Assembly (NCBI GenBank): GCA_963771175.1
Contig: CAVYSY010000045.1
Span: 32,001-96,000, forward strand
Reading direction: 5' to 3'
From: an uncultured delta proteobacterium
GTDB lineage: Bacteria; Myxococcota; Myxococcia; Myxococcales; Myxococcaceae
DNA: 64,000 bases
Shown: in pieces, positions 1 through 33,473 of the stretch
Numbering within the stretch: position 1 is the first letter of the stretch
Layout: every line of letters starts with the position of its first letter
Position numbers and translations under genes: made by a program
Notes under the pieces: model-generated
Databases searched by the model: none
Told to the model about the DNA's origin: nothing
Seen by the model: the letters and a program-made list of their open reading frames with translations, nothing else

Positions 1-1800
1 GACTTCCGGTGGGCCCCGACGCGGGACCTGGCCCTGGTGGGCGCCCTCAACCCGGACTTCAGCCAGCTGGAGGCGGATCAGCTCCGGGTCAACCTCAGCA
101 ACTTCGAGCTCTTCTTCCAAGAGCGGCGCCCCTTCTTCACCCAGGGGATGGAGCTGTTCGTCCCGGTGAGTGCCAACGAGGGGCGGGCCCGGCAGATCCT
201 CTTCTACTCGCGCCGCATCGGGCTGGATGCGCCCATCCTCGGCGCGGTCAAGCTGACGGGCACGGTGGGCGAGGAGCTGGACATCGGCGTGCTGGACTCG
301 CTGGTGATGGGCGCAGCGGATCCGGCCAAGGAGGCAGCGCTGGTGCGGGGAGAGGCTCCGGACGAGTCGAACCCCCGCCGGCAGGTGGGCTTCCACCCCA
401 AGCGCCCGTTCCACCTGGGGCTGGATGACGAGCTGCCCTCCCTGGAGCCGGTGACGCGCAACTTCCTGGCCGCGGTGGTGCGGCGCCGCTTCGGCGCCCT
501 GGGCTCTGTCGGAGGCACGGTGGCGGCCGTCACCCCCTTCGCGGCGCCTTGCCCGCGCGAGGAGCCGGGACAGGCGCCGGACACCGTGGCGCTGGCGCGC
601 TGCCGCCCGGTGGGGGCGCAGGTGGGCTCGTTGGATTGGACACTTGGCACGGCCTCGGGCGAGTGGCGCGTGCTCGGCCACGTGGCGGGCTCGCGCGTGA
701 CGGGCGGCGCGCCCGAGGGAGAGGTGCTGGCGGACGGCACCCTGCTGCGGGCGGGGGACACGGGCCTGGGAGCCTTCGTGCGTGCGGGCAAGCTGGGCGG
801 CGAGCCGCTGCGCTTCTCGGTCGGGTACACGCGTGCCTCCCCGCGCTTGGAGCTCAACCGTACCGGCTACCTCGTCGCGCAGAACGAGCAGACCGCGGAC
901 ATGCAGCTCACCTGGGTCCGTGCCTCTCGCCAGGGGTGGCTCGAGTCCCTGGAGTCCAACCTCACCCTGCTCGGCCGCTGGTCCTCGGACGAGCGCGGCG
1001 TGGGGCTGGCCCAGCGCCTCATCTCCGTCACCGAGGCCGTCCTGACTGGCTACCACACGCTCACCTTCACCGCGGGCTACGAGGTGGGGCGCCGGGACAT
1101 CTGGGAAATCGTCGGCACCGGCATTCCGGTGGAGCGCCCCAACCACCTCTATCTGGATGGCAGCCTGAGCACGGATCCTCGCCGCAGCGTCGTCCTGAAG
1201 GCCTCGGGCTACTTCGAGCGGCTCTTCTCCCAGGGCGCCAGCCCCACCCAGTCCGGCGGTGGAGGGGGGCTGACCCTCCAGATGAACGCCCACCCGGCGC
1301 TGGAGACGCGGCTGGAGGTGTCCCTGGAGCGGCCAGGGGAGGGCGCTCGGTTCCTGGAGGCGCTGGGCCCGGGCCGCTTCCTCTTTGGCGAACTGGAGCC
1401 CCAGTACGTCACCCTGACGCTGCGCCAGCTCTGGGTCATCACCCCGCGGCTGACCTTCCAGGGCTACGGCCAGCTCTTCCATGGCTCTGTACGGGCGAGC
1501 GCCGTCTACGAGGCCGCGCCCGAGCCAGGGGGGCCGGTTCGTCTGGTGGATCTGGTGCCGGCCTCCGCGGACTCGCGGCCAGACTTCGACGTCTCCGGCC
1601 TCAACCTCAACCTCGTGCTGCGCTGGGAGTACCGCCCGGGTGCCAGCTTCTACGTCGTCTATTCGCGCACGCAGAACGGGCTGCCGCTGGCGCCCTCCGG
1701 CCTCCGTCCCGAGCCCGGCCTGGTGCCGCGCGGCGAGCTCTGGAAGGGCCCCGCCACGGATCTGCTGCTGCTGAAGCTGTCCTGGTGGTGGGCGGCCTGA
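1..1800 (+). CDS. DUF5916-family outer-membrane beta-barrel-like protein, 5' truncated by the window
   Basis: Frame open from base 1. Motif NPDFSQLEAD...NLSNFELFFQERRPFF..G and LFYSRRIG; C-terminal NLVLRWEYRPG...LLKLSWWW. Confidence 0.8.
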   Translation, partial: DFRWAPTRDLALVGALNPDFSQLEADQLRVNLSNFELFFQERRPFFTQGMELFVPVSANEGRARQILFYSRRIGLDAPILGAVKLTGTVGEELDIGVLDSLVMGAADPAKEAALVRGEAPDESNPRRQVGFHPKRPFHLGLDDELPSLEPVTRNFLAAVVRRRFGALGSVGGTVAAVTPFAAPCPREEPGQAPDTVALARCRPVGAQVGSLDWTLGTASGEWRVLGHVAGSRVTGGAPEGEVLADGTLLRAGDTGLGAFVRAGKLGGEPLRFSVGYTRASPRLELNRTGYLVAQNEQTADMQLTWVRASRQGWLESLESNLTLLGRWSSDERGVGLAQRLISVTEAVLTGYHTLTFTAGYEVGRRDIWEIVGTGIPVERPNHLYLDGSLSTDPRRSVVLKASGYFERLFSQGASPTQSGGGGGLTLQMNAHPALETRLEVSLERPGEGARFLEALGPGRFLFGELEPQYVTLTLRQLWVITPRLTFQGYGQLFHGSVRASAVYEAAPEPGGPVRLVDLVPASADSRPDFDVSGLNLNLVLRWEYRPGASFYVVYSRTQNGLPLAPSGLRPEPGLVPRGELWKGPATDLLLLKLSWWWAA

Positions 1801-1810: not shown

Positions 1811-3649
1811 TCAGTCCACGCGCCAGCGCATCCAGCGGGACAGGCCCACGAAGCTGGCCAGTGTCACCACGGCCAGCACCGCGAGGTCCAGCGCGAAGCG
1901 GGCATCCACGGTGCCATCCAGCGCCCGGCGCAGCGCGTCCGCCGCGTAGGTGGGGGGCAGCAGCATCCCGAGTGCCCGCAGGGGCGGGGGCAGCGCCTCC
2001 GCGGGGATGAACACGGGCGCGGCCAGCAGCAGCAGGGAGATGAGGGCATTGGTGACGACCACGAGCAGGTCCAGGTCTCGGATGAGCGAGCCCAGCACCA
2101 GACCTGCTCCGCAGAAGGACAACGCGCTGAGCGGGACGAGCACCAGCAGCCAGGGGCTCAGCTCCAGCCGGATGCCGTGCAGCAGCCAGCCGGCGAGCAG
2201 CGGGGTGACGACCCCGGGGAAGATGATGAACACGCGGGAGAGGACGAGGGAGGCGACGAAGGAGGCCTGGCTGATGGGCAGAGCGGCGTAATAGATGAGC
2301 CGCCCGTCCTTGCGCATCATCCCGATGCGCTGCGCGCAGGTGAGGAGCCCCTCGGTGGCCACCGCGAACACCGCTGCCCCGCTGACGATGTAGAGCAGGC
2401 TCATCCGGTCGCTCAGGCCCAGGCCGATGCGCGACAGCCCGAACACCATCGCCACCGGCATGAAGAGGGAGAAGACGGCGTTCCAGGCCCAGGTGTGCCG
2501 CACCTCCAGCATGTGCTCGAACCACAGGTACTTGAGCGCCACCAGCTCGCGCCGCAGGCGGCTCGGGCCGGGCGAGGGGCTCTCCTCGATGCTCGGGACT
2601 GGTGGCAGTGCTGGGGCCTCCTCGCACGCGCCGCGGTCCAGATCCAGATACACCTCTTCCAGGGAAGGAGGGGCGAGTCGGAGATCCTCCACCCGTTGCA
2701 ACCCCAGCGCCTGGAGGATCTCGGCGCTGGCCTGCCCGGCGCGCTGGGGCTCCAGGTAGGTGCGATAGTGCCCCTCGCGGATCTCGGTGACCTGACCATG
2801 GCCGCGCAGCCGCTCCAACTCCCAGTCCTCCAGCCGCACGCCCTCCTTGAGCTGCAGCTCCAGCCGCACGTGGCCGCCCGCGCGCTGCTTGATGTCCTGG
2901 GGCGTCCCGAGTGCGATGATGCGCCCCCGGTCCATCACCGCCACGCGGTGGATGACCCGCTCGGCCTCCAGCACGTTGTGGGTGACGAGCAGGCAGGTGA
3001 GGCCCTGCTCCCGGTTGAGCTGATCCAGGGTGTCCCAGACGAGGCGCCGCTTGTGCGGATCCAACTCGTTGGTGGGCTCGTCGAGGATGAGCAGCCGGGG
3101 GTTTCCCATGAGTGCCATGCCGAAGCCGACCAGCCGCGACATGCCGCCACTGAGGTGGTTGACGTACCGCCGCCGGAAGTCGCCCAGGCCGAGCATGTCG
3201 ATGAGCTGGCGGGTCTGCGCGCGCGCGTCATGCTCGCTCTGGCCCCTCAGCCGTCCGGTGTAGTGCAGCGCGCGCTCCACCTCCACGTAGTGGAGCGCCA
3301 GCTCGCCCTGGGGCAGGAAGCCGATCAGCTCCTTCACCGCGTCCGGCTGGCGAACGACGTCCACGTGCTCGACCTGGAGGTGGCCCGAGGTGGGGCGCAT
3401 GAGCCCCATGAGCTGCATGACGAGCGTCGTCTTCCCGGCGCCGTTGGGCCCCAGCAGCCCGAAGATCTCTCCGCGGTGGATGTCGAAGGAGAGCCGATCG
3501 TTGGCGACCACTGGCGGCTCGCCGGGAAACGTACGGACCAGCTCCCGCACCGCCACCGCCACGCGAGGGGTCACTGCGGGCGCCAGGGGGGCGAGGGGCT
3601 CGGCGGGGGGGGCAACAAGGAGTAGGGGCTGCCCGGGAGTGGAGTTCAC
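1811..3649 (-). CDS. ABC transporter, ATP-binding domain fused to ABC-2 type permease
   Basis: Walker A GPNGAGKTT, signature LSGGM, Walker B LLILDEPT, then about 6 hydrophobic helices with LPPTYAADALR. GTG start overlaps the upstream TGA. Confidence 0.9.
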   Translation of the reverse strand: MNSTPGQPLLLVAPPAEPLAPLAPAVTPRVAVAVRELVRTFPGEPPVVANDRLSFDIHRGEIFGLLGPNGAGKTTLVMQLMGLMRPTSGHLQVEHVDVVRQPDAVKELIGFLPQGELALHYVEVERALHYTGRLRGQSEHDARAQTRQLIDMLGLGDFRRRYVNHLSGGMSRLVGFGMALMGNPRLLILDEPTNELDPHKRRLVWDTLDQLNREQGLTCLLVTHNVLEAERVIHRVAVMDRGRIIALGTPQDIKQRAGGHVRLELQLKEGVRLEDWELERLRGHGQVTEIREGHYRTYLEPQRAGQASAEILQALGLQRVEDLRLAPPSLEEVYLDLDRGACEEAPALPPVPSIEESPSPGPSRLRRELVALKYLWFEHMLEVRHTWAWNAVFSLFMPVAMVFGLSRIGLGLSDRMSLLYIVSGAAVFAVATEGLLTCAQRIGMMRKDGRLIYYAALPISQASFVASLVLSRVFIIFPGVVTPLLAGWLLHGIRLELSPWLLVLVPLSALSFCGAGLVLGSLIRDLDLLVVVTNALISLLLLAAPVFIPAEALPPPLRALGMLLPPTYAADALRRALDGTVDARFALDLAVLAVVTLASFVGLSRWMRWRVD

Positions 3650-5940
3650 AGCTCCTCCGTCTGCGTGATGACCGTGGTGTCGGTGAAGCCGAAGCCATAC
3701 GGGGCCGCCATGAGGGTGGAGGGCCGCCGCTGGGACTCAGGGAGGGTGGGGATGCCCAGGGAGACGGCGCTGGCGCGCACGCGCACCGGGCCTCCCCCCC
3801 GCACCCTCAGGAAGAAGGGGAGCCCTTCCGGCGGGGGCTGCCAATAGTCGAGGTGGAGCCCCGCCCCCGCGGCGAGCACCGCGCCCGGCACTGGGGAGCC
3901 ACCCACCCGGGCCTCGAGGAGCTCCATCGGCGGCAGATCCAACTGGAGCAGCGCCGCGCCAGGGGGGACCTCCACCCGGAGGGTGAGGACGCGCACCTCG
4001 CCCTCCCGGCGCTCCTCGAGCAGGAGGGTGCGAGCCGGAGACAGCGGCAGCAGAGGCGCCTCGCGGTAGAGCACCTCCGTCTCCAGCCAGGGCAGGGCCT
4101 CGTCGAAGCGTCGCGCCGAGGGAGCCGTGCCGAGGAACTGCTCCGCCCACTGGCCATGGGTGGCCTCGTGGGACAGCCAGAAGGCCCGGCGCCCATCCCC
4201 GTCCAGCCAGTAGGCGATGCTCTCGGGCCAGGGGCGGGACGCCGAGGGGCTCGCCGCCAGCGCCCCGGCCACCAACAGCACCCCTCCGGCCGCCATCGCC
4301 CCGGCTGCCAGGGCGTGCCAGCGCTCGCGGATGAGCCACGCCAGGGCGGGAGCTAGCAGCCCGAGCACCAGGGAAGCGAGGAGCAGGCCCACGCCCGCCA
4401 GCGAGAGCCCGAGTGCCGAGAGGAGCGGGTACAGGGTGGAGGTGACCAGCATCAGCAGGGGCGCCCCACCCGCGGCGAGCACCAGCCCCGCCGCCCATGG
4501 GCGCTCGCCCACGCGGCGCAGGGCGAGGTGCGTCAGCCAGGCCAGGAGCAGGGGCCACGCGAAGAGATAGCTTGCCCCGGGGAGGAGCACGGCGGTGGCC
4601 ACCGCGAGCGCGGCCCATGGCAGCCGTGCCCCGTGCCCCCACTCCTCCTCCTGCACGCGCGCCTGCCCCCAGCGCCGGGCCAGCGTGAAGGGCACGAGCG
4701 CCAGGGCGAGGAGGCCGGCCTGGAAGGGCGCCGGTGTGTGGGCATCTCCCTGGGCGAAGGCCTCCAACCCGGTGGCGTTCTGCGTGGCGCGCCACGCCAG
4801 GGTGACGAGCACCGCCGCGGCCAGGGCGCTCAGCACCGTTCCCACCACCGCCAGGGCCAGCCCCCGGATCCTGAGCCGCCCGGCGCGCACCGCGCCCACC
4901 AGGGTGAGCACCTCGAGCACCAGCAGCAGCACCGCGAGCGGAATGGCCCATGCCCGGGGGTACGCGACGAGCCAGTCTCCCACCGGGTTGAAGTAGACGA
5001 GCCCCTGGGCCTCTCGAGGCGGCGTCTCCCCGTCCGCGAGCGCGCGCGTGAGGGCCAGCAGGTTCTCGCCATGGTGCTGGAGGCTGCCGTCGTCGAGCTG
5101 CTCCGGCGTGTCCAGCCACGTGTGGTAGTGGATGAGCCCCTCGATGAAGGCGAAGTTCATCCCCGCCAGGCCCGCCTGGCGGAAGATGGACAGGTCGGTG
5201 TCGGCCGACAGGTAGGGGTAGAGCTCTCCCGCGAGCGAGTTGCCCATCGGGTGGGGGGCCACCTCCCTGAACCGCTGGATGAGCCAGCCCTGGGGCCCGG
5301 TCGTCTCGAAGAGGAGGGAGGGCCCGCGCGTGCCACGGGCCTCGAAGTTGAGGGTGACCGCCACCTTCGCGAAGAGCGGGTGCTGGAGGAAGCCCTCGGC
5401 GCCGAGCAGCCCCGCCTCTTCCGCGTCCGTGAACAGAAAGAGGACGTCGTGTCGTGGTGGCGGCTCGGTGCGCAGGGCCCGCAGGGCCTCCAGCATGGCC
5501 GCGACCGCGGCGCCGTTGTCCGCGGCGCCGGGGCCGCTGGGGACCGAGTCGTAGTGCCCCACCACCAGCACGGCGTGGTGGCCCTCGGTGCCCGGCAGGC
5601 GCGCGAGGACGTTGTGCACGGTGGCTGCCACCACGGCGCCAGGGGCCCCCTGCGCCCGGAGGAGCTCGGTGGTCTGTACCTCGGGGGACACACCCAGCTC
5701 GGTCAGGCGCGCGAGCAGCTCCCGCCGCACCTCGGCCAGGCGCGCCGAGCCCACCGGCCGGGGCTGCGCCGTGAGCCAGGCGAGGTGCTGGCGCGCGCGC
5801 GCCGCCGAGAACGCGCCCACGGGCGCAGCTCCTCCCAGGGCGGCAGGCGGACGGTGGGTGGCGAGCGCGAGCACGACCGCCGCGGCCAGCAGGAAGGCCA
5901 GGCCGAGGCGTGGTGCGAGTTCGGGCGGGAGCCGGCTCAT
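3646..5940 (-). CDS. Membrane-bound M28-family metallopeptidase (ERMP1/FXNA-like)
   Basis: GHYDSV, GAADNGAAVA, FTDAEEAGLLGA, NFEARG, DTD and YHT..D motifs, followed by a multi-pass TM region. Confidence 0.9.
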   Translation of the reverse strand: MSRLPPELAPRLGLAFLLAAAVVLALATHRPPAALGGAAPVGAFSAARARQHLAWLTAQPRPVGSARLAEVRRELLARLTELGVSPEVQTTELLRAQGAPGAVVAATVHNVLARLPGTEGHHAVLVVGHYDSVPSGPGAADNGAAVAAMLEALRALRTEPPPRHDVLFLFTDAEEAGLLGAEGFLQHPLFAKVAVTLNFEARGTRGPSLLFETTGPQGWLIQRFREVAPHPMGNSLAGELYPYLSADTDLSIFRQAGLAGMNFAFIEGLIHYHTWLDTPEQLDDGSLQHHGENLLALTRALADGETPPREAQGLVYFNPVGDWLVAYPRAWAIPLAVLLLVLEVLTLVGAVRAGRLRIRGLALAVVGTVLSALAAAVLVTLAWRATQNATGLEAFAQGDAHTPAPFQAGLLALALVPFTLARRWGQARVQEEEWGHGARLPWAALAVATAVLLPGASYLFAWPLLLAWLTHLALRRVGERPWAAGLVLAAGGAPLLMLVTSTLYPLLSALGLSLAGVGLLLASLVLGLLAPALAWLIRERWHALAAGAMAAGGVLLVAGALAASPSASRPWPESIAYWLDGDGRRAFWLSHEATHGQWAEQFLGTAPSARRFDEALPWLETEVLYREAPLLPLSPARTLLLEERREGEVRVLTLRVEVPPGAALLQLDLPPMELLEARVGGSPVPGAVLAAGAGLHLDYWQPPPEGLPFFLRVRGGGPVRVRASAVSLGIPTLPESQRRPSTLMAAPYGFGFTDTTVITQTEEL

Positions 5941-5956
5941 GCGTCGGTTCAGGGGC

Positions 5957-6871
5957 TCAGGCCGCCACCGCGAGGCGGGGTTCCTCCACCACCTCGGCCT
6001 GCGTGGCGGGCCGCGCCCAGACGATGAAGAGGGCGGGGTAGAGCAGGAAGAGGTGCCAGAACGAGATGTTCATCGTGAGGCCAACTCCCATGTGGAACAT
6101 CATGGACATGGCCCCCAGCCAGCGTGGGAAGCGCCCCAGCACCAGTCCCAGGGGAAGGAAGCCGAACTCGAAGATCCCGGCGAACAGTGTGGAGGCGGTG
6201 AAGAACCAGGGGAAGCGGGTGAGCTCCCGGCCAATCCACCCCCCTGTCTCCAGCGTCTGGATGAACGGGGTCTGCCCGAGCACGAACCAGTCCAGGCCGC
6301 CGGAGAGCAGCTTGGCCAGCCCGGCCTGGAAGTAGAAGACCGCGATGAAGAGCTGCATCGCGCCCATGGCGAACGAGGCCCGCTGCTGCTCGGCGAGCGG
6401 GTCCACCGGGGGGCGCGTCCGCCCCAGCCTCGCATCGAGCGAGAGGGCCTGTCCGCAGGGGAAGAGGCAGAGCGCGAGCAGGAAGAAGTTCAGGTAGGTG
6501 TTGTAGGCCCACGTCGGCCGGGTGAAGCAGGCGACGTAGTAGTTCCATGCGGTGAAGAGGGTGCCGAACAGCACCGCCGAGGGGCGCGTGGCCAGCCCGA
6601 GGGTGAAGAGCACCCCGGTGAGGATGATGGCTGCCTCGAGCACCCACAGCCCCGTACGCCCCAGCGGCGGGAAGAACGAGAAGAGCGGGCTCGGGCGGTA
6701 CAGCAGATCCGCGGTGTCGATCAGGAACTGGCTGTACGGCTCCAGCAGCACGTAGGCGATGCAGATGAGCCCCACTGAGATGCGCATGAGGGCCAGCCGA
6801 CGCAGGGGCTCGGGCTGCTCGAAGAGGAGGCGGTACAAATGGGTCTCGAGCTGGCGGAGTCGGGCCATCAT
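5957..6871 (-). CDS. HTTM-domain membrane protein (vitamin K-dependent carboxylase / SdpB-like)
   Basis: LALMRI..G, LFTLGLATR, ALSLDA, Q....FYFQAGLAKL..GG.DW, FE.GF, MFH.G....M.I.F pattern. Confidence 0.75.
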   Translation of the reverse strand: MMARLRQLETHLYRLLFEQPEPLRRLALMRISVGLICIAYVLLEPYSQFLIDTADLLYRPSPLFSFFPPLGRTGLWVLEAAIILTGVLFTLGLATRPSAVLFGTLFTAWNYYVACFTRPTWAYNTYLNFFLLALCLFPCGQALSLDARLGRTRPPVDPLAEQQRASFAMGAMQLFIAVFYFQAGLAKLLSGGLDWFVLGQTPFIQTLETGGWIGRELTRFPWFFTASTLFAGIFEFGFLPLGLVLGRFPRWLGAMSMMFHMGVGLTMNISFWHLFLLYPALFIVWARPATQAEVVEEPRLAVAA

Positions 6872-7410
6872 TGGGGGCGGGGCTCGGAGTAGGAGTAGAA
6901 GGGCACGCTCTTCAGGGGCTCGAGCGGGGAGCCGTACTGGTAGAGGGTGTAGTCGAGGGTGTCGGCGGTGAGCTCGAAGCCCACGAAGCGCGCTCCGGGC
7001 GCGGGCCGCAGCGGCAGGGCGAACTCATCGAAGTCCCGCCACGGCTCGCCGTTCACCCACTGGAGGATGAGCGGCGAGAAGCGCTCGCGCACTCCCGTGA
7101 GGTCGCCATCCGGCAGGTAGATGCGGTGCATCAGGTCCATGGCCAGCCAGTAGTCCATCGGGACGACGTTCCAGGGATCTCCGGTGACGCGGCGGCCCGT
7201 GTCCTCGATGAGGTGGACCTTCATCACCTCCTGCTGCAAGGGGGTGACGTGTTTGAAGAACGAGTGGTCGGCGAAGGGCCAGTTGGAGTGCTGCAGCACG
7301 GCGGTGTGGAAGAGCTGGATGCCCAGCAGCGCCGTGAGCACACCCGCCAGGAGGCGCTTGTGCGTGGGGGAGAGCCCGGCCCCTGAGTGGTTTCGAGGGG
7401 CGCCGCTCAT
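6868..7410 (-). CDS. Single-TM hypothetical protein, probable HTTM partner (SdpA-like position)
   Basis: N-terminal TM helix then NWPFADHSFF. Overlapping start/stop codons with both the NRPS and the HTTM gene. Confidence 0.6.
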   Translation of the reverse strand: MSGAPRNHSGAGLSPTHKRLLAGVLTALLGIQLFHTAVLQHSNWPFADHSFFKHVTPLQQEVMKVHLIEDTGRRVTGDPWNVVPMDYWLAMDLMHRIYLPDGDLTGVRERFSPLILQWVNGEPWRDFDEFALPLRPAPGARFVGFELTADTLDYTLYQYGSPLEPLKSVPFYSYSEPRPQ

Positions 7411-10400
7411 GCCACGCTCTCCTGGCCGGGGGCCACCGGCGCCGCCGCGAGCCGCTTCTCCAGGCCCAGGATGGTGCGCTCGCGGAACAGGTCGCGCAGC
7501 GCGAGGTTCGCCTGGAAGGCCTCGTTGATGCGCGCCATCAGCCGGATGGCGTGGATGGAGTGCCCGCCCAGCTCGAAGAAGTCATCGGTGACGCCCACGG
7601 AGGGCAGCCCGAGCACGTCACACCAGAGCGCCGCCAGCCGCTCCTGGACGGGGCCCTGGGGAGGCACCGCGCGTTCCGGCTCGCGGGGGCCGAGCGGCAG
7701 CTCCGGCAGCGCACGCTCGTCCACCTTGCCGCTCGGCGTGAGGGGAAGGGCCGACAGGAACCGGAAGTGCTCCGGCACCATGTAGTCCGGCAGGCTGTCG
7801 CGCAGCTCCTGCCTCAGCGTGCGTGCCTCCACGGGGCGCCAGAGGTACTCCGCCGCGGGCGCGTGCGGGTGCTCCATCCAGACGCTCGGATCGTAGTACT
7901 CCCCCATGCCTGCCTCCAGGTCGATGTGCACTGGCCGCAGCGTGTCCCGGACGACGTAGTCGCCGCTGGCCGGGAACGTCCGCCCGGCCCAACGCTGCCA
8001 GTCCTCCACGCTCGCCTCTATCCGCTGCGAGCGGGGCTCCACGCGCAGCACGCGCGCGCCCATCCGTTCGTGGGTCCGCAGCCACCGGTCGTCCAGCTGG
8101 CCGTCCTCGCGCCGGCGCAGGCAGTACTCCTCGACGCTCTCCTCCGGGCGCGCGGTCTTGTCCACCGGCCGTACTGGTGCCACCAGGCGCTCCAGCCCCT
8201 GGGCATGGGCCAGGTGCTTCATCGCCTTCAAGAGGAAGGAGCTCAGGCCTTGGCCGTGGGCGTTCGTGCTCACCACCGCGGCGAGCAGCATCAGGGTGTC
8301 GGGGTGCTCGCCGCGCGAGGCACCCGCGAAGGCCCGCTCGATCGCGTCGTCCCACCCGCGCGGCAGCGTTTCCAGCGTGCCATTCCAGGAGAAGGGGAGG
8401 GCATTGCCGACGCCCACCAGGGTGTCCTTCTCGTCGAGCACGGCGAGCTGGTACTCGGGGAACTCGGCGCTCAGGCGCGGCCAGAAGGTGCGCATCGCGC
8501 AGTTGCCCAGGAAGTACTCGGGCCAGCTCTCCGCGTGCAGCGTGTCCGCGGCGCGCCGCAGCTCGGGGCGCTGGGACAGGGTGAAGAGCCGGTAGTGCCG
8601 GTCGTCGCCCAGCCGCACGAAGCGCTCGTGCAGCTCCAGGTACGCCACGAGCGTGTCGCCGCCGCCGGGGGCCTGCTGGTGGCGCACGAGGCACCTGTCT
8701 ACCGCCGGGTGCGCGGCCAGCCGGCCCTCCACTTCCTCCAGCTCCACGCGGTTGCCGCGGATCTTCACCTGCTTGTCCACGCGCGCCACGTAGTGGAGCT
8801 GTCCGTCCTCGGAGTAGCGCCCCAGGTCACCCGTGCGGTAGAGCCGCGCGCCCGGCACCGCCGAGTACGGGTCAGGGACGAACTGGAGCGCGGTGCGGAC
8901 CGGATCCTCGGCATAACCCCGCGCCAGACCCGGGGAGCTGATGAACAGCTCGCCCTTGACCCCGGGCGGCACCAGCCGGAGCGCCGTGTCGAGCACCAGC
9001 GCCCGGGTGTTGTCCAGGGGTCTGCCGATGGGCACCAGCTCCGTGGAGACGGGTGCGGCGCAGGGGAAGCGGGTGGCGTCCACCGTCACCTCGGTGGGGC
9101 CGTAATGGTTGGCCAACCGGCAGGGCAGGGCGGCCAGCGCGCGATCTCGTAGCTCCCGGGTGAGGTAGGCGCCGCCGCAGATGAGGAGCCGGAGGGAAGG
9201 TAGCGGGGGCAGCTCCCCGGCGAGCTGGGCCTGAATGAGCGCATCCAGCATGAGCGGCACCGTTTGGAAGGCCGTCACCTGATGGCGGGCGACCCGCGCC
9301 GCGATGCGGGCCGGATCCTTGTTCTCGCCCGGCTGAGGCAGGACGACGCGCGCCCCGAAGGCGAGCGGCCAGAAGAAGTCCAGCACGGAGGCATCGAAGT
9401 CCACGGGGGTGATGAAGAGCACCGTGTCCCCGGCCTTCAGGCCGTACTCGCGCTGGGTGGAGTCGATGAGGTTGTGCACGCCCAGGTGGGAGATCTCGAT
9501 TCCCTTGGGCGTGCCGGTGGTGCCGGAGGTGTAGAGGACGTAGGCGAGCTGCTCCGCCAGGACGCGCATCGGGGCGCCCGTGGGCAACGCGGAGACCTCG
9601 GCCCCGTGCTCCTCCATCCGGAAGACGCCCGGGCGATCCCTCAGGGCTGGCGCCTGGAGGGAGCCATGGGTGAGCACGGTGCGCACGCCCGCCTGCGTGA
9701 GCACGTGCTCGTGGCGCTCGGCGGGGTGGTCCGGGTTGAGGGGCACGTAGGCCGCGCCGGCCTTGAGGATGGCCAGCAGCGCGATCCCCAGATCCAGCGA
9801 GGGCTCGAGCAGCACCGCCACCCGCTCCTCGGGGCGCATCCCGCGGGCGAGCAGCCAGCGCGCCCACCGGTCCGAGGCCTCGTCCAGGGCCCGGTAGGTC
9901 AGGGTGCCGGAGTCGTGCTCGAGCGCCACCGCGTCCGGGGTGGCACGAGCCTGCGCGGACAGGCGCGCGGTGAGACCCTCCTGCTGCTCGAAGGCGTGGG
10001 TGGGGCCGGACAGCTCGCGCAGCCAGCGCGTCTCGGCCTCGGCGGTCAGCAGCCGGTAGTCCGCCAGGGGCTTGCCGGGGGCGCGTGCCGTCTCGGCGGC
10101 CAGGGAGAAGAACTGCTCCAGCATCCGCTCCACGCTCTCTCGCCGGAACAGGTCGCTGTTGTAGTTGAGGCTGACGATGGTGTCGTTGCCGAACTGCTCC
10201 ACGATGAAGGTCAGATCGAAGCGCGCGTTCTGGAACTCAGGCGTGGCCATGTTGGTGAGGTAGCGCAGCTCCAGCCCCTCGAAGCGCAGCTCCGAGGCCA
10301 GCTTCGTCTTGTTGTTCTGGACGCCGTACATCACCGAGAACAGCCGGTTGCGTGACAAGTCCATCTGGGGGTTGACCTCCTGGATGGAGAGCACGCTCGG

Positions 10401-13400
10401 GTACAGGTGATGATCGAAGCCCTGGAGCGCCGTCTCGCGGGTCTGCTCCAGGAGCTGCTGGAAGGTGAGCCCGGGGGAGATGCGGCAGCGCATGGGGAGC
10501 GCGGTGGCGAACAGGCCGAGCACGGGCTCCAGGGACTCGTCGGCGCGGTTGGCGATGGGGGTGCCGATGGCGAAGTCGGACTGGTTCGTCAGGCGGTGGA
10601 GCTGGAGGTTGAGCACCGCCAGCAGGTAGAGGAATGGGGTGAGGTTGTTGGCGGCCAGGAAGGGGTCCACCGCCGCGCGCACGTCCTCCGGCATCACCCG
10701 CGTCAGGGTGTCCCCGCGGAAGGTCTGAAGGGCGGGCCGGGGAAAGTCCGTGGGGAGGTCCAGCGCTGGGGGCACGGGGGTGAGCTGGCGCACCCAGTAC
10801 TGGCGCTGGTCCTCCAGCAGGCCGCCCTGGATGGCGGAGTTGAGCCAGCGCGTGTAGTCCAGGTAGTCGATGGGGAGCGCGGGCAGCACCGGCTCGCTGC
10901 CGGTGTGGTAGGCGCGGTACAGCGCGCTCAGCTCGCGCGCCATGCTCATCGTCGACGTCTCGTCCCAGAGGATGTGGTGGGTGGCGAAGACGAACTGGAA
11001 GCGCTTGCCCGGGAACTCCGCCAGCTTCACGCGGAACAGCGGCGGGCGCTTGAGGTCGAACGGGGCGTTGCTCTGCTCGTCCACCAGGCGTCGGATCTCC
11101 TCCTCCACCCGCTCGGGGGGCACGTCGCGGCGATCGATGTAGATGTCCTTCTGGGAGATCTCCAGCCGCGGCAGCACCCGGTGCACGGGGCGCCCGTCCT
11201 CGTAGGCGAACCAGGTCCGGAAGACCGTGTGCCGGTCGAAGAGCGTCTGCCAGGCGCGCGTGAAGGCCTCCAGGTCCACGTCTCCGACGAGCTGCACGTC
11301 GCCGACGGTGACGTTGTAGAGCGCGCTGCCGGGGTTCAGCTCATACATGTACCACTCGGGCAGCTGCAGGGCCGCGAGCGGGTAGGACTCCTGGGCGGGC
11401 AGCTTCACCAGCGGGTGGCGGTGGAGCAGCGGGGCAGCGCCCTCACCAGCGGTCGCGCCTTCGCCCCCGCGCGGCTTCTGTTCGAGGTACCGGGCCAGCT
11501 CCTCCACCGTCTGGTAGTCGAAGAACTCGCGGATGGACAGCTCGATGCCGAGGCTCTTGCGCAGCCGGGAGATGATCTGGATGGCGACGAGAGAGTGACC
11601 GCCCAGGTCGAAGAAGTTGTCGTGCACCCCCACCCGCGGCATGCCCAGCAGCTCCCGCCACTGGGTGGCCACCTCGGCCTCCAGGGGAGTGCGCGGCTCA
11701 TCCCCCTCGCCGGACTCCTGGGCCTGGAACTCCTCCGGGGAGGGCAGGGCCTTGCGATCCACCTTGCCGTTGTGGGTCAGCGGCAGGGTCTCCATCACCA
11801 CGAAGGCCGAGGGCACCATCGCCGCGGTGAGCTGCTCCTTGAGGAAGTCGGCCAGCGCCTTGGGCGTCGGCTTCGCGCCGGACTCCTTGGGCGCCACGTA
11901 CGCCACCAGCCGCTTGCCCTGGCCCCCGTCCTGCCGGGCCACCACCACGCACATCCCCACCTCGGGGTGCCGCCGCAGCGCCGATTCGATCTCTCCCAGC
12001 TCGATGCGGATGCCGCGGATCTTCACCTGGTGATCGTTGCGGCCCAGGAACTCGATCGTCCCGTCCGCCAGGTAGCGCACGAGGTCTCCCGTGCGGTACA
12101 TGCGCTCGCCCGGGGTGGAGGAGAAGGGGTTGGGCACGTAGACGCCCGCCGTCTTGGCCGGGTCTCCCAGGTAGCCGCGGCCCACGCCCACGCCGCCGAC
12201 GCACAGCTCCCCGGGCACGCCCAGCGGCACCGGCCGCAGCCACTCGTCCAGCACGTAGATCTGGAGGTTGGGCAGCGTGCCGTTGATGGGCATCCACGGC
12301 TGTTGCTGGGACGGCGCCTGGAACATCTTGTAGTGCGTCACGTCGTCCGAGCACTCGGTGGGCCCGTAGGCGTTCACCATGGGGATGTGCGGGTAGAGCT
12401 GGAACCACCGCACGCACATCTCCGCCGGCAGCGCCTCACCATTGAGGAAGAACCAGCGCAGCGCCGACAGGTCGTACTGCCCCCGGCGCGTCTCCAGCTC
12501 CTCCAGGATGAGCTTCATGTGGGCCGGCACCGTCTCCAACACCGTGACGTGCTGGCGCGCCATCTCCTTCATCAGCCGTTCCGGCTCCCAGGCGCTCTCG
12601 TCCTGGAAGACGGCCGTGCACCCGCCGCACAGCAGCGCCGCCAGGAACTGCCACACCGACACATCGAAGCTCTGCACCGCCACCTGGGCCACCACATCCC
12701 GCGGGCTCAGCTGAAGGTCGAACACCTTGGCCAGCAGGTGGTTCTTCATCCCCCGGTGCTCGATCATGGCGCCCTTGGGCAGACCCGTGGAGCCCGAGGT
12801 GAAGAGCACGTACGCCAGGCTCTTGGGCTGCACGTGGTGCTCGGGGTTGTGCCGCGGGTGCTCCTCCTCCTGTACCTGCTCCAGCGTCAGCACCGGCCGC
12901 CCCGCCGCCACCTCCTGGGCCAGCGACGTGTGTTTCTGCTCGCTGAGCACCAGCATGCACCCGCTCTGCTCCACCAGTCCCGCCAGTCGCTGCGCCGGCA
13001 GTGCCGGATCCAACGGCAGGTAGACCGCGTCCGCCTTGAGCACTCCCAGCAGGCTCGCCAGGTAGCCCTCGCCCCGGTCCTGCACCACCCCCACCACCCG
13101 CTCCAGCCCCGCACCTCGCGCCCTCAGCGCGTGCGCCACCTGGTTGGCCCAGGCGTTGAGCTGCTGGTAGCTCAGCGCCCGCTCCTGGCACACCACCGCC
13201 ACCGCGTCCGGCGTGCGCTCCACCTGCTCCTCGAACAGCTCGCAGAACAGCGAGGGTCCCTCTGCTTCCGGGCGCCTCGTCCGGTTCCACTCCTCCACCA
13301 CCCGCCGCCGCTCCGCCTCGCCCACCACCGGCAGCTCCCACAGCCGAGCCTCGGGGCGCGCCACCGCTCCGGCCAGCAGCACCTGGTAGTGCTCCATCAT

Positions 13401-14759
13401 CCGCTCGATGGTGCTCGGGTCGAAAAGGTCCGTGTTGTACTCGGCGATGGCGGACAGCCCGTCTGGGGTCTCGCTCATCCCCACGACGAGGTCGAACTTC
13501 GCCGTGCCGGTCTCCAGATCCTCGGGGCTGAGCTTGAGCCCGGGGAGCTCCACCTTGGGGGCGGGTGCATTCTGAAGCTCGAAGAAGACCTGGAAGAGGG
13601 GCGTGCGCGTCAGGTCCCGCTCCGGCTGCACCGCCTCCACCACCCGGTCGAATGGCGCCTCCTGGTGCGTATACGCCTCCAGCGTCACCTTCCGCACCCG
13701 CTCCAGCAGCTCGCTGAAACGCGGGTTGCCACCCACCTGCGTGCGCAGCGCCAGCGTGTTGATGAAGAAGCCGATCAGCTCCTCGATCTCCGCCCGGCCG
13801 CGGTTGGCCACGGAAGTGCCCACGACGATGTCTTGCTGCCGGGTGTAGCGGGCCAGCAGCGCGTTGAAGCCAGTCAGCAGCGTCATGAACAGCGTGGCGC
13901 CCTGCTTGCGGCTCAGTGCCTTCAAGCCCTCCATCAGCTCACGGGAGAGGGAGAACCTGTACAGCGCTCCGCGGGCGCCCTGCATGGGCCCGCGCGGCCG
14001 GTCCGTCTTCAGGTCCAGTGGCTCCACGCCCACGAGCTGCTGCTTCCAGTACTCCAGGTGCTTGTCCAGCACCTCGCCCTGGAGCCACTGCCGCTGCCAC
14101 AGGGTGTAGTCCACGTACTGCACCTTCAGCGCACCCAGCGGCGACGGCTGCCCCGCGCTGAAGGCCGCGTACAGCGTCCCCAGCTCCTTGAAGAACACGC
14201 CCACCGACCACCCATCCGACACGATGTGGTGCATGGTGAACAGCAGCACGTGCTCGGTGGGCTCCAGCTTGAGCAGCTGGGCCCTCACCAGCGGCCCCTT
14301 GCTGAGATCAAACGGCCTGCGCGCCTCCTCGCCGCCCAGGCGCTGGACCTCCGTGGCCCGCGCCCCCGGCTCCAGTGCGCTGAGGTCCAGCACCGCCAGC
14401 GGCAGGAGCACCGGCTCGCCGATGCGCTGCACCGGCAGGCCCTCTTCCTGCTCGAACGTGGTGCGCAGCACCTCGTGTCGCGCGACGATCTCCCCCAAGC
14501 TGCGCTCCAGCGCGGCCACGTCCAGCCGTCCGCTGAGCCGCAGCGCTCCCGGCACGTTGTACAGTGCGCTGCCCGGCTCCAGCTGATCCAGCACCCATAG
14601 GCGCTGCTGACCGAACGAGAGGGGAAAGCTCTTCTTCCGCTTCTTCTTCTTGGGAGGCGGGACCGCGGCGGAACTCGCCTCGGGGGCGATGGGATCCGCT
14701 TCATCATGAGTGGGACTGCCGCGTCGCTGCGCCTCGCCTCCAGCCTTGGGCTGACTCAT
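7407..14759 (-). CDS. NRPS, C-A-T-C-A(GNAT-interrupted)-T, no TE
   Basis: HHIVSDGWS, FTSGSTGLPKG, YGPTE, GGHSL; second module HHILWDETS, YTSGTTGTPKG, GGHSI. Start placed at ATG 14759; the ORF extends to 14807. Confidence 0.95.
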   Translation of the reverse strand: MSQPKAGGEAQRRGSPTHDEADPIAPEASSAAVPPPKKKKRKKSFPLSFGQQRLWVLDQLEPGSALYNVPGALRLSGRLDVAALERSLGEIVARHEVLRTTFEQEEGLPVQRIGEPVLLPLAVLDLSALEPGARATEVQRLGGEEARRPFDLSKGPLVRAQLLKLEPTEHVLLFTMHHIVSDGWSVGVFFKELGTLYAAFSAGQPSPLGALKVQYVDYTLWQRQWLQGEVLDKHLEYWKQQLVGVEPLDLKTDRPRGPMQGARGALYRFSLSRELMEGLKALSRKQGATLFMTLLTGFNALLARYTRQQDIVVGTSVANRGRAEIEELIGFFINTLALRTQVGGNPRFSELLERVRKVTLEAYTHQEAPFDRVVEAVQPERDLTRTPLFQVFFELQNAPAPKVELPGLKLSPEDLETGTAKFDLVVGMSETPDGLSAIAEYNTDLFDPSTIERMMEHYQVLLAGAVARPEARLWELPVVGEAERRRVVEEWNRTRRPEAEGPSLFCELFEEQVERTPDAVAVVCQERALSYQQLNAWANQVAHALRARGAGLERVVGVVQDRGEGYLASLLGVLKADAVYLPLDPALPAQRLAGLVEQSGCMLVLSEQKHTSLAQEVAAGRPVLTLEQVQEEEHPRHNPEHHVQPKSLAYVLFTSGSTGLPKGAMIEHRGMKNHLLAKVFDLQLSPRDVVAQVAVQSFDVSVWQFLAALLCGGCTAVFQDESAWEPERLMKEMARQHVTVLETVPAHMKLILEELETRRGQYDLSALRWFFLNGEALPAEMCVRWFQLYPHIPMVNAYGPTECSDDVTHYKMFQAPSQQQPWMPINGTLPNLQIYVLDEWLRPVPLGVPGELCVGGVGVGRGYLGDPAKTAGVYVPNPFSSTPGERMYRTGDLVRYLADGTIEFLGRNDHQVKIRGIRIELGEIESALRRHPEVGMCVVVARQDGGQGKRLVAYVAPKESGAKPTPKALADFLKEQLTAAMVPSAFVVMETLPLTHNGKVDRKALPSPEEFQAQESGEGDEPRTPLEAEVATQWRELLGMPRVGVHDNFFDLGGHSLVAIQIISRLRKSLGIELSIREFFDYQTVEELARYLEQKPRGGEGATAGEGAAPLLHRHPLVKLPAQESYPLAALQLPEWYMYELNPGSALYNVTVGDVQLVGDVDLEAFTRAWQTLFDRHTVFRTWFAYEDGRPVHRVLPRLEISQKDIYIDRRDVPPERVEEEIRRLVDEQSNAPFDLKRPPLFRVKLAEFPGKRFQFVFATHHILWDETSTMSMARELSALYRAYHTGSEPVLPALPIDYLDYTRWLNSAIQGGLLEDQRQYWVRQLTPVPPALDLPTDFPRPALQTFRGDTLTRVMPEDVRAAVDPFLAANNLTPFLYLLAVLNLQLHRLTNQSDFAIGTPIANRADESLEPVLGLFATALPMRCRISPGLTFQQLLEQTRETALQGFDHHLYPSVLSIQEVNPQMDLSRNRLFSVMYGVQNNKTKLASELRFEGLELRYLTNMATPEFQNARFDLTFIVEQFGNDTIVSLNYNSDLFRRESVERMLEQFFSLAAETARAPGKPLADYRLLTAEAETRWLRELSGPTHAFEQQEGLTARLSAQARATPDAVALEHDSGTLTYRALDEASDRWARWLLARGMRPEERVAVLLEPSLDLGIALLAILKAGAAYVPLNPDHPAERHEHVLTQAGVRTVLTHGSLQAPALRDRPGVFRMEEHGAEVSALPTGAPMRVLAEQLAYVLYTSGTTGTPKGIEISHLGVHNLIDSTQREYGLKAGDTVLFITPVDFDASVLDFFWPLAFGARVVLPQPGENKDPARIAARVARHQVTAFQTVPLMLDALIQAQLAGELPPLPSLRLLICGGAYLTRELRDRALAALPCRLANHYGPTEVTVDATRFPCAAPVSTELVPIGRPLDNTRALVLDTALRLVPPGVKGELFISSPGLARGYAEDPVRTALQFVPDPYSAVPGARLYRTGDLGRYSEDGQLHYVARVDKQVKIRGNRVELEEVEGRLAAHPAVDRCLVRHQQAPGGGDTLVAYLELHERFVRLGDDRHYRLFTLSQRPELRRAADTLHAESWPEYFLGNCAMRTFWPRLSAEFPEYQLAVLDEKDTLVGVGNALPFSWNGTLETLPRGWDDAIERAFAGASRGEHPDTLMLLAAVVSTNAHGQGLSSFLLKAMKHLAHAQGLERLVAPVRPVDKTARPEESVEEYCLRRREDGQLDDRWLRTHERMGARVLRVEPRSQRIEASVEDWQRWAGRTFPASGDYVVRDTLRPVHIDLEAGMGEYYDPSVWMEHPHAPAAEYLWRPVEARTLRQELRDSLPDYMVPEHFRFLSALPLTPSGKVDERALPELPLGPREPERAVPPQGPVQERLAALWCDVLGLPSVGVTDDFFELGGHSIHAIRLMARINEAFQANLALRDLFRERTILGLEKRLAAAPVAPGQESVA
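11743..14609 (-). repeat. Inverted repeat copy (C-A didomain); partner at 26763-29626
   Basis: Reverse complement largely identical to 26763-29626 over about 2.87 kb, with short divergent patches. Confidence 0.9.
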
Positions 14760-14941
14760 TTCGGGGCGGCATACTCGGTGCTCATCCCAGGACAGGTCAA
14801 CGAACATTCACGAGGCTGGCCTGTTTCTCTAGAAATCTAGTATAGGCGGGGTTCGCAGGTATGCGCGTCCTACGCCCCTCGGAGTGGCCTAGGGGGGGAT
14901 TGCTGCTCACTTGGGTGTTCCTGCTCACCGCCATCGTCGAC
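14760..14941. promoter_or_regulatory. Divergent promoter region of the two NRPS arms
   Basis: Intergenic gap between head-to-head genes. AT-richer core TTTCTCTAGAAATCTAGTATAG with a short dyad CTAGA-AA-TCTAG. Confidence 0.5.
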
Positions 14942-20296: not shown

Positions 20297-29987
<9,691 letters not shown>

Positions 29988-30008
29988 CCCATGGTGAAGG
30001 AACCTCTC

Positions 30009-31495: not shown

Positions 31496-31603
31496 GGCAG
31501 GGGAGCTCAATGGCAGCACATACTACCAGGGCACCTGCGGTAGAGTCTCAACCCCGAATCCTGGCCATGCGCTGCATGGCCCACCCCACACAGGAGTCGC
31601 ATC

Positions 31604-33454: not shown

Positions 33455-33473
33455 ACGATACGTGGACCTGACC

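Follow-up and report, generated by a model that had tools for sequence, protein, structure and literature searches.

The window analysed here is a stretch of 64,000 nucleotides from an uncultured member of the Myxococcaceae, in which five genes lie one behind the other on the minus strand. The terminal NRPS (7407..14807; 2466 aa, C-A-T-C-A-T; Pfam Condensation x2, AMP-binding x2, PP-binding x2) is followed by a partner protein (6868..7410; 180 aa, a small alpha/beta domain behind an N-terminal membrane helix), an HTTM protein (5957..6871; 304 aa, PF05090, with a predicted GGCX-like membrane domain), a membrane M28 metallopeptidase (3646..5940; 764 aa, PF04389 at 156.2 bits) and a fused ABC exporter (1811..3649; 612 aa, ABC_tran + ABC2_membrane), in which a DrrA-like ATP-binding domain is joined to an ABC-2 permease. 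Convergent on the ABC gene, a DUF5916 protein (PF19313) is encoded on the plus strand at 1..1800, its 5' end being cut by the window. At the DNA level, the NRPS and partner genes share a 4-nt ATGA overlap, as do the partner and HTTM genes (again ATGA, 4 nt), the HTTM and M28 genes are separated by a gap of 16 nt, and the M28 gene runs into the ABC gene through a GTGA overlap. This confirmed the initial annotation, in which an NRPS ending at a T domain continued into four downstream genes through overlapping or close start and stop codons. In a second genome (G372) the gene order is retained, including the convergent DUF5916 gene, at 55-71% protein identity; therefore, the arrangement is not a product of chance. 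DUF5916 homologues (43-45% identity) were also found within about 7 kb of M28 genes at the loci L095, L096, L098 and L100, and the DUF5916 gene is possibly a member of the M28/ABC neighbourhood.

In the terminal NRPS, the final carrier-protein serine motif (LGGHSI) is located at residue 2413 of 2466, about 50 residues remain after the serine, and no TE, R or C domain was found 3' of this last motif. The earlier description of the NRPS as 'TE-less' therefore holds for the protein, but not for the cluster, where a free-standing thioesterase is encoded on the plus strand (33234..34226; PF00975, 147.8 bits). It is the sole TE of the cluster and is 64% identical to its homologue in the G372 cluster. 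Further plus-strand genes are a loading gene divergent from the terminal NRPS (14861..20296; acyl-AMP ligase (FAAL type)-T-C-A-T; Pfam AMP-binding + PF23024, Condensation and PP-binding), additional NRPS modules assigned with Pfam (20293..29987; C-A-T-C-A-T-C-A-T) and a CmlA-type diiron beta-hydroxylase (31853..33331; PF18456, 294.9 bits). In this assembly, the plus-strand NRPS frame is broken at several points between 23.7 and 25.8 kb, as indicated by a tblastn frame change and in-frame stops. G372 has a single unbroken frame across the first break near 23.7 kb (the g2/g2b junction), and indels at the break points distinguish contigs of the runs X1 and X20. The G372 orthologue of the terminal NRPS is 67% identical. 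With domain queries from the same protein, the identities in G219 were 79-84% in the first module (C, A and T), 80% across an insert of about 330 aa that the second A domain contains, and 37% in the last T domain. When partial motifs near the A4/A5 cores were compared with specificity codes, no module could be recognised as Asp- or Glu-activating.

The HTTM protein matches PF05090 over residues 21-239 with 34.1 bits (cut-off 27.7), and its structure was predicted with a pLDDT of 88.8. A Foldseek search of the PDB with this model returned exclusively human GGCX at ranks 1-16 (E 1.1e-4 to 1.4e-2; 187-289 alignment columns), with TMq values of 0.55-0.62 down to rank 15 and of 0.43 at rank 16; the first non-GGCX match had a probability of 0.13. 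By sequence, the narrow HTTM profiles A1 and A4 missed GGCX, which was reached by the broader profile A5 alone (28 sequences, E 2.7e-15). In the A5 alignment, K187, W195 and E235 of the HTTM protein correspond to K218, W223 and D263 of GGCX, F259/H260 to F286/H287 and F271 to F299, and none of the 28 HTTM sequences deviates at K187, W195, E235 or H260. For GGCX, the available text of PMC12647623 describes K218 as the general base on which W223 stacks and D263 as the acid, while F286 stacks on the quinone ring and F299 on CO2. An alignment to the GGCX catalytic residues, suggested in the initial annotation, thus revealed conserved quinol-site residues, and both this alignment and the Foldseek match bear out the relationship to GGCX and MloH claimed there. 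Judged from the profile and the predicted fold, the HTTM protein is a genuine GGCX/MloH-type relative. Candidates for cofactor supply are encoded in the same genome, namely menA, found with 179 bits, and a gene that matches the VKOR family with 37.7 bits.

GGCX residues N159 and H160, which bind the Glu carboxylate, align to Y123 and N124 of the HTTM protein; therefore, a Glu-type substrate pocket is not conserved. At position 126, the window protein has Tyr and 24 of 25 relatives have His, and human GGCX also carries Tyr there (Y162). A reading in which H126 is the counterpart of GGCX H160, and H126Y thus inactivating, was rejected, as the alignment sets position 126 opposite Y162. The pair might perform GGCX-type strong-base chemistry other than carboxylation, for example epimerisation, C-H oxygenation, cyclisation, or modification of a lipid or quinone. 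Such a reaction would agree with the retention of the quinol-activating residues and the loss of the Glu-binding N159/H160 equivalents, as well as with the chemically diverse contexts of the pair described below. However, the CO2-stacking Phe (F271, equivalent to F299) is retained in at least 90% of the 28 HTTM sequences, and MloH, the only characterised bacterial natural-product homologue in the parts of the sources available, is a carboxylase (PMC12186529, PMC12647623). We therefore consider chemistry without carboxylation quite unlikely. MloH is reported to carboxylate an aspartyl residue in malonomycin biosynthesis (PMC12186529; 10.64898/2026.08.19.745780, both as far as their text was accessible). 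Like the protein studied here, it is an HTTM-type protein encoded in a biosynthetic cluster, in its case a PKS-NRPS cluster whose product it is described as tailoring; it is further described as a fused single protein (10.64898/2026.08.19.745780, available text), whereas the enzyme encoded in the window would be split.

GGCX shares with the HTTM protein the fold of the membrane domain and the conserved K218, W223, D263 (Glu here), F286 and F299, and it differs in more than N159/H160. It has 758 residues compared with 304, it contains a fused lumenal clamp domain (Tyr395, Met401/402) in place of which a separate 180-aa single-helix protein is found here, and it acts on a propeptide-tagged protein, whereas the substrate here is presumably a small non-ribosomal peptide. 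The single-helix partner has no Pfam or NCBIfam match, and none of 50 partner relatives matches any Pfam model; its family comprises 94 representatives (E<=1e-3) among 1.84 billion proteins. In the predicted structure (pLDDT 90.4), a helix at residues 15-39 precedes a beta-beta-alpha-alpha-beta-beta domain, and a loop with W44-P45 is invariant. Foldseek returned nothing for this model at E<=0.001 (best E 0.64), and in a VIA-align comparison with 48,161 chains the best Z was 3.4, with GGCX 402-492 at Z 3.0 and rank 20, which is noise level. The domain should face the periplasm, as deduced from the positive-inside rule and the domain order. Among 401 Myxococcota genomes, the partner was found in six. 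The same six, and no others, have the close HTTM subfamily, in each case with its gene next to that of the partner. Moreover, a natural fusion protein (P0043) combines an HTTM part (residues 13-271, hhalign E 9.8e-38) with a partner part (residues 284-423). From gene pairing and natural fusion, the small membrane partner is obligate for the HTTM protein; we propose that it is the second subunit of the HTTM enzyme, which it would bind physically.

A small membrane protein encoded before an HTTM protein is also the gene order of SdpAB, and some partner loci lie beside peptide-export genes, with a C39-ABC exporter and HlyD at L027 and an ABC-2 transporter at L075 and L068. SdpA and SdpB of Bacillus subtilis are both required for processing of SdpC to the SDP toxin, so that here, too, a small protein and an HTTM protein encoded side by side are needed for the maturation of a peptide toxin that is exported and membrane-active (PMC6818787, available text). 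The pair could accordingly be a maturation or secretion helper of the SdpAB type that performs no carboxylation, its quinol site having a redox or structural role. We regard a helper of this type as unlikely, because neither the partner nor the HTTM protein matches any NCBIfam family, SdpA and SdpB included, at E<=0.01; the SdpA model TIGR04034 has no match genome-wide, with a positive Bacillus subtilis control; and the SdpA Pfam models match none of the 50 partner relatives at E<=1. These models thus do not identify the partner as an SdpA. Furthermore, the residues equivalent to K218, W223 and D263 are strictly invariant, which speaks for catalysis and against a helper role. The substrate of SdpAB, SdpC, is a ribosomal protein, whereas the neighbours here are NRPS genes. 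Another parallel in domain layout is offered by the DUF5819 proteins, for which a preprint describes, in its available text, a single-helix protein and an HTTM neighbour that are predicted by AlphaFold 3 to form a GGCX-like whole, with conserved Lys, Trp and Phe in the quinol pocket (10.64898/2026.08.19.745780). In both partner types, a membrane helix at the N terminus precedes a domain of about 140-150 aa, and the gene lies beside an HTTM gene. However, none of 50 partner-family members matches the DUF5819 Pfam model at E<=1, and the HTTM protein of the example described in that text has a fused DCC1-like domain, which the one here does not have. This preprint was the only work found in the open-access literature on HTTM together with nonribosomal synthesis, and no work was found there that joins the HTTM domain with biosynthetic gene clusters.

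Across 22 partner loci from five or more phyla, an HTTM gene adjoins the partner gene in 21. Sixteen of these loci lie outside Myxococcota (Actinomycetota, Bacteroidota, Cyanobacteria, Chlamydiota and an unclassified MAG); the HTTM gene is alongside in 15 of them, and 14 of these 15 pairs run in the same direction, with an overlap or at most 10 nt between the genes in 10 and about 50-110 nt in four. The outside loci were found with a degenerate DNA pattern that yielded 44 loci, of which 16 were true by HMM and 28 were dropped as chance matches. Since this pattern fits only 38 of 95 known members, the taxonomic spread is a lower bound from a biased sample. A pattern search of genome contigs with the HTTM alignment A1 gave 122 pattern matches, none of which was confirmed. 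At more distant HTTM loci, the partner HMM gave two marginal matches with E 0.002 and 0.004 in a tiny database, and these were set aside. The surroundings of the pair are chemically diverse and include NRPS clusters, gene clusters with aaRS-like and ATP-grasp genes, and ThiF and S66 neighbours; in total, 16 of the 22 loci have a peptide or polyketide-type cluster context. Occurrence without NRPS genes, named in the initial annotation as evidence against the cassette, was partly observed: NRPS domains occur within 10 kb in only seven of 22 partner loci and are absent from that range in 15. NRPS or acyl-AMP-ligase genes occur within 10 kb of nine of 17 M28 loci (those with at least 8 kb of context per side).

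The M28 protein consists of an N-terminal anchor, an M28 domain at residues 110-297, a region with some six further hydrophobic segments, and a C-terminal domain; the anchor and the later segments were located with a hydropathy scan. In an alignment with the aminopeptidase YwaD, the motifs HxD (H-Y-D), D-N-G, E-E and Y-H-T are kept, including the di-zinc ligand motifs, and the positive-inside rule and domain order indicate that the catalytic domain should face the periplasm. Bacteria widely share the M28-TM architecture; in a language-model search it lay near eukaryotic ERMP1 clusters, which we note as a lead only. The following ABC exporter matches ABC_tran (99.6 bits), ABC2_membrane (45.8 bits) and DrrA1-3_C (25.7 bits), and reaches 220.7 bits with the drrA subfamily model, under the cut-off of 312; it resembles DrrAB-type exporters in its DrrA-like ATP-binding and ABC-2 permease parts, but these are fused in one chain. 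In the most similar cluster found (G219 and G226), an NRPS ending at T is followed by the M28 gene (74% and 73% identity) and the ABC gene (83% in both, compared with 71% in G372), and the pair is absent. Therefore, the pair is not needed for chain release or export in G219 and G226. In support of the initial annotation, membrane M28 peptidases were found repeatedly next to NRPS or acyl-AMP-ligase genes of Myxococcota, where M28 and ABC form a recurrent module. In the ClbP-type prodrug systems of colibactin biosynthesis and similar pathways, a periplasm-facing membrane peptidase lies beside an exporter, and an amino acid is N-acylated by the first NRPS module. ClbP belongs to the S12 serine peptidases of the beta-lactamase fold; the protein in the window differs as a di-zinc metallopeptidase of family M28 whose multi-helix membrane body is ERMP1-like, and a Pfam search of it for an S12 domain found none, with matches to the M28, M20 and M42 families only. 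Nothing relevant on M28 in myxobacterial lipopeptide gene clusters was found in the open-access literature.

The initial annotation had treated the four membrane-protein genes as one cassette, and a single co-evolved membrane cassette for FAAL-NRPS lipopeptides might indeed be read from their arrangement in one operon with overlapping stops and starts, from their joint conservation in G372, and from two genomes (G255 and G280) in which the partner, HTTM, a divergent M28 gene and a FAAL-like ligase occur together. This reading does not agree with the wider distribution and appears very improbable to us. All four genes were seen together in the window and G372 only, M28 is near the pair at four of the 22 partner loci and is missing from its vicinity at all 16 loci outside Myxococcota, G219 and G226 have M28 and ABC without the pair, and among 201 genomes of the family, 64 have an M28 match, of which 60 have none that adjoins a partner gene. 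Conversely, one or both modules could be passengers unrelated to the NRPS product, with a role in envelope housekeeping or general resistance. The breadth of the M28-TM architecture among bacteria is compatible with passengers, as is the lack of biosynthetic neighbours within 10 kb at six of 22 partner loci and eight of 17 M28 loci. However, the order NRPS ending in T, partner, HTTM recurs in another phylum (Chitinophaga rhizophila, L052), and co-translation is implied by the 4-nt overlaps of stop and start codons with the NRPS gene. In addition, a search of 60 relatives, including 17 of the same genus, did not reveal the partner, which is therefore an accessory rather than a housekeeping gene. 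Taken together, a passenger role seems highly unlikely.

The best overall explanation, which we favour with a little more than even confidence, is that two independent modules, a split GGCX-like pair and an exporter with an M28 peptidase, act on the lipopeptide. These two membrane modules, which occur apart, would be independent in origin and would have been joined in one operon behind the terminal NRPS. In the first module, partner and HTTM protein would together build the GGCX/MloH architecture from two subunits: the membrane quinol and CO2 site would come from the HTTM protein, and the partner would add a further membrane helix and a cap domain in the periplasm that replaces the fused lumenal domain of GGCX. 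With menaquinol and O2, the pair would most likely carry out strong-base C-H activation of the lipopeptide on the periplasmic side of the inner membrane, and peptide carboxylation, as in MloH, is the leading guess for its reaction. In the second module, the ABC protein would export the acylated peptide and the M28 enzyme would trim it in the periplasm, for maturation or self-protection. We infer the NRPS product as substrate of the pair, the kind of reaction and the cleavage target of M28 from the arguments given above. Modification, cleavage and export of the lipopeptide at the membrane, as originally envisaged, are plausible, and the predicted periplasmic location of the partner and M28 domains fits a post-export maturation line.

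For bacterial HTTM function, the available text of the sources documents a single carboxylase, MloH, and a single pair that is genetically defined, SdpAB. The present study adds a compact split GGCX-like form in which every quinol-site residue is intact, together with a new obligate partner family. It is tempting, if still tentative, to propose that such pairs are widespread, unnamed two-subunit GGCX-related enzymes that may use quinol and O2 to power the C-H carboxylation of small peptides, or a different strong-base reaction on them, on the outer side of the cytoplasmic membrane. In at least five phyla, they would have been recruited repeatedly for tailoring by unrelated biosynthetic systems, namely NRPS clusters, clusters with aaRS-like and ATP-grasp genes, and ThiF/S66 peptide clusters, and the partner would be a stand-in for the lumenal clamp that sets substrate choice. 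Closely similar lipopeptide clusters with the pair (the window and G372) and without it (G219 and G226) offer a natural comparison. In myxobacterial lipopeptide pathways, the M28-ABC module may represent a second type of step for prodrug maturation or self-protection, one based on a metallopeptidase. If the pair is a carboxylase, it would represent a portable periplasmic CO2-fixing peptide-tailoring enzyme and would serve as a marker for a group of actinobacterial clusters that are still uncharacterised.

Five consecutive genes on the minus strand of the window (about 70% G+C) encode a terminal NRPS with the Pfam domain order C-A-T-C-A-T (7407-14807, 2466 aa), the partner protein (6868-7410, 180 aa), the HTTM protein (5957-6871, 304 aa; PF05090, 34.1 bits), a membrane M28 peptidase (3646-5940, 764 aa; PF04389, 156 bits) and a fused ABC exporter (1811-3649, 612 aa; ABC_tran and ABC2_membrane). 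The source genome, G000, is a Myxococcota draft of 9.8 Mb in 58 contigs with 81.7% completeness. From the NRPS through to the exporter, stop and start codons of successive genes meet in ATGA, again in ATGA, across a 16-nt gap and in GTGA. The last carrier-protein serine motif of the NRPS, LGGHSI, lies at residue 2413 with the C-terminus about 50 residues beyond, and no release domain follows that serine. Pfam matches, motifs and DNA junctions thus bear out the initial annotation of an NRPS that ends at a T domain and runs through overlapping or close junctions into four membrane-protein genes. Its term "TE-less" is correct for the NRPS protein but not for the cluster as a whole: on the plus strand a loading gene (FAAL-type acyl-AMP ligase-T-C-A-T) is followed by three further modules, a CmlA-type hydroxylase and a free thioesterase (33234-34226, plus; Pfam). 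In the terminal NRPS, about 330 extra residues interrupt the second A domain after core motif A8 and before A10 (7728-8720, minus; residues ~2030-2360); the sole family match of this insert is a weak GNAT hit (Acetyltransf_1, E 0.0026). Since the insert is 80% identical in the related genome G219, it is a conserved embedded domain. The last plus-strand NRPS gene is separated from the CmlA gene by two overlapping ORFs of 252 and 265 aa (29991-31543, plus) without Pfam match, the first of which has a counterpart in the syntenic G372 cluster at 61% identity. A tape-measure protein of a contractile injection system (40861-43218, minus; PF19268, 343 bits) is adjoined by large ORFs, one with DUF1508 repeats, in a region reaching ~53.7 kb, and this is a separate locus adjoining the NRPS cluster.

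The reading frame of the plus-strand NRPS is broken at several places between 23712 and 25770 by a frame change at about 23.72-23.73 kb, in-frame stops and out-of-frame stretches. At these breaks, contigs from the public sequencing runs X1 and X20 (at least 90% likeness) show 12 small indels relative to the window. The indel groups each sum to a multiple of three, except the first, of two bases, which falls at the frame change near 23.73 kb; the G372 orthologue has a single frame across this first break. The breaks are therefore probably assembly errors in a repeated module, and real decay of the gene is the less favoured explanation. A second menA copy (G000:C10:115492-116323; L108, L109) is also split over two reading frames, a further sign of indel errors, or of decay, in the G000 assembly.

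The partner has no family match in Pfam or NCBIfam, and none of its nearest 30 language-model clusters has a name. When 1.84 billion representatives were searched exhaustively with phmmer, 94 relatives passed E<=1e-3, of which 41 also passed E<=1e-10, most with lengths of 160-190 aa. The SdpA and DUF5819 Pfam models matched none of 50 aligned members, even at E<=1. Among 401 sampled Myxococcota genomes the partner profile matched in six, exactly those with the close HTTM subfamily (E<=3e-45), and the two genes are adjacent in all six; a search of 60 relatives, including 17 of the same genus, found no partner. Beyond Myxococcota, scanning 185,579 species genomes with a degenerate pattern yielded 44 loci, 16 with a true partner, from twelve Actinomycetota, Chitinophaga rhizophila, a Bacteroidetes MAG, Synechococcus, a Waddliaceae MAG and an unclassified MAG. 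An HTTM gene adjoins the partner in 15 of these 16 loci; in 14 of the 15 both genes run in the same direction, overlapping or at most 10 nt apart in ten and ~50-110 nt apart in four. The remaining locus (L040) lies near a contig end, with the partner gene split over two frames. In addition, one protein of 448 aa (P0043) is a natural fusion of HTTM (13-271; hhalign probability 99.95, E 9.8e-38) and partner (284-423). Partner and HTTM protein are thus an obligate pair.

The AlphaFold model of the HTTM protein (pLDDT 88.8) retrieved human GGCX, the vitamin K-dependent carboxylase, as the best 16 matches of a PDB search (TMq 0.55-0.62 for ranks 1-15, 0.43 for rank 16), and matches beyond rank 16 were noise. 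Narrow HTTM sequence profiles did not reach GGCX; a profile of 28 sequences including more distant myxobacterial HTTM proteins did (E 2.7e-15). One named HTTM relative originates from Hyalangium rubrum. For the profile alignment, GGCX construct numbering was converted to native numbering by an offset of +31 taken from the table (24-287 versus 55-318). Besides K187, aligned to the base K218, it pairs W195 with W223, E235 with D263, F259/H260 with F286/H287, F271 with F299 and W121 with W157. According to the GGCX paper, W223 stacks on K218, D263 is the acid adjoining it, F286 stacks on the naphthoquinone ring and F299 on CO2 (PMC12647623). None of the 28 HTTM sequences deviates at K187, W195, E235 or H260. 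As judged from model and alignment, the HTTM protein is thus GGCX-like down to its predicted quinol site. The proposed comparison with GGCX catalytic residues was affirmed for this site but not for the glutamate carboxylate-binding residues N159/H160 (PMC12647623), which align with Y123/N124 and are not conserved; the substrate pocket must therefore differ from that of GGCX. Position 126 (codon TAC) is Tyr in the window and His in 24 of 25 relatives, which we do not read as inactivating because GGCX likewise has Tyr at the aligned position (Y162).

The model of the partner (pLDDT 90.4) consists of a membrane helix (15-39) followed by a beta-beta-alpha-alpha-beta-beta domain that, alone, gave no significant match in structure searches. 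Lys and Arg are more frequent before the helix than after it in 31 of 50 relatives, with the reverse in eight. By the positive-inside rule, this bias would place the domain outside the cytoplasm, topologically the side of the GGCX lumenal domain. A comparable arrangement is described in a preprint, in which an AlphaFold 3 model of single-helix DUF5819 with its neighbouring HTTM protein aligns the helix with a GGCX membrane helix, puts the domain in clamp position and lines a quinol pocket with conserved Lys, Trp and Phe; MloH is presented there as the fused equivalent (10.64898/2026.08.19.745780). Our pair would follow the same logic with a partner family that is unrelated to DUF5819 or has diverged beyond recognition. 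Gene adjacency, reading-frame overlap and the natural fusion point to putative binding between partner and HTTM protein. With menA (179 bits) and a match to the VKOR family (37.7 bits), G000 also provides a naphthoquinone and a candidate enzyme for recycling it. Together, the pair is likely a two-subunit GGCX-like enzyme.

The M28 and ABC genes had been proposed to form one four-gene cassette with the pair, which was not borne out. The best M28 matches are in G219 (74% identity) and G226 (73%), where the NRPS and M28 genes overlap at stop and start, the ABC gene (83%) comes next and no partner or HTTM gene intervenes; the syntenic G372 copy is only 57% identical. Apart from this, the nearest relative found is the G219 cluster (acyl-AMP ligase 86%; first module of the terminal NRPS: C 84%, A 79%, T 84%; A-domain insert 80%), while G372 is more distant yet has the pair. 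These identities would be most simply explained by the pair having been lost once, in the G219/G226 line. Whatever the history, assembly, release and export in G219/G226 do without the pair, and M28 and ABC are a module separate from it. Homologues of this M28 type occur in 64 of 201 same-family genomes, a tally that includes one unpublished genome (G236). In 17 loci with at least 8 kb on each side, in which relatives are not independent and about five distinct biosynthetic contexts are represented, NRPS or acyl-AMP-ligase genes lie within 10 kb in nine, a TE adjoins the M28 gene in three and a DUF5916 gene is nearby in six, the window and G372 counted. The DUF5916 gene (window 1-1800, plus) recurs within a few kb of M28, ABC and TE genes in several genera, with homologues 43-45% identical in L095, L096, L098 and L100, and may be part of the same envelope module. 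The M28 catalytic domain can be aligned with aminopeptidases, its metal-ligand motifs being conserved; a language-model search gave, as a lead only, a similar overall architecture to eukaryotic ERMP1-type membrane M28 proteins.

The tie of the pair to NRPS genes held only in part, since NRPS C, A or T domains lie within 10 kb in only 7 of 22 partner loci (window, G372, L052, L035, L039, L047, L068). In Chitinophaga (L052), a T-ending NRPS is directly followed by the partner and HTTM genes, as in the window. Nine actinobacterial loci (L034, L070, L073, L035, L039, L038, L043, L047, L068) share an operon-like set of truncated genes resembling class-II aminoacyl-tRNA synthetases (tRNA-synt_2, 2c, His; in some also PheRS-beta), together with a methyltransferase, ATP-grasp ligases and a transporter of MFS or ABC-2 type, to which many add an S66 (LD-carboxypeptidase) peptidase, P450 or PKS/TE pieces. 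We know of no product of this cluster. A ThiF-family adenylating enzyme and an S66 peptidase adjoin the pair in Synechococcus (L054; 6893-10339), and ThiF, a C39-ABC exporter and HlyD accompany it in G329 (L027; 9648-12459), gene content which we take to be reminiscent of peptide-nucleotide (microcin C-like) clusters. L024 and L025 combine the pair with a divergent M28 membrane peptidase gene, a FAAL-like ligase and a GHMP kinase, and six loci (L026, L040, L046, L062, L072, L075) have no clear biosynthetic context. L026 (G219:C1, ~6.68 Mb) is an isolated pair, its HTTM protein 38% identical to that of the window, where G+C is lower (64%) and an IS66 transposase lies nearby, 0.7 Mb away from the NRPS-M28-ABC cluster of G219, itself without the pair.

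In the likeliest working model, the NRPS chain would be released, with the free thioesterase as the only candidate for this step, and the acylated peptide would be passed by the ABC exporter into the inner membrane or across it. On the periplasmic side, partner and HTTM protein with menaquinol and O2 would activate a C-H bond of the peptide, which the M28 enzyme would trim. The pair probably acts on the product of this cluster. That M28 matures or detoxifies the same product is a tentative proposal at somewhat below even chances, and carboxylation, as in MloH, would be the leading guess for the reaction while still rather doubtful.

GGCX-like enzymes in natural-product clusters are already known (MloH), and a split DUF5819-HTTM form was predicted in the 2026 preprint (10.64898/2026.08.19.745780); beyond it, a full-text search outside subscription journals found no paper linking HTTM domains with biosynthetic gene clusters. 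New are the partner family, which has no name and no entry in Pfam or NCBIfam, its strict association with HTTM proteins of a subfamily in which the quinol site is fully kept, the recurrent M28-ABC module, the natural comparison of myxobacterial clusters with and without the pair and the spread of the partner family over several kinds of biosynthetic cluster. In summary, the pair is not NRPS-specific but a tailoring-type accessory found in peptide pathways of several kinds.
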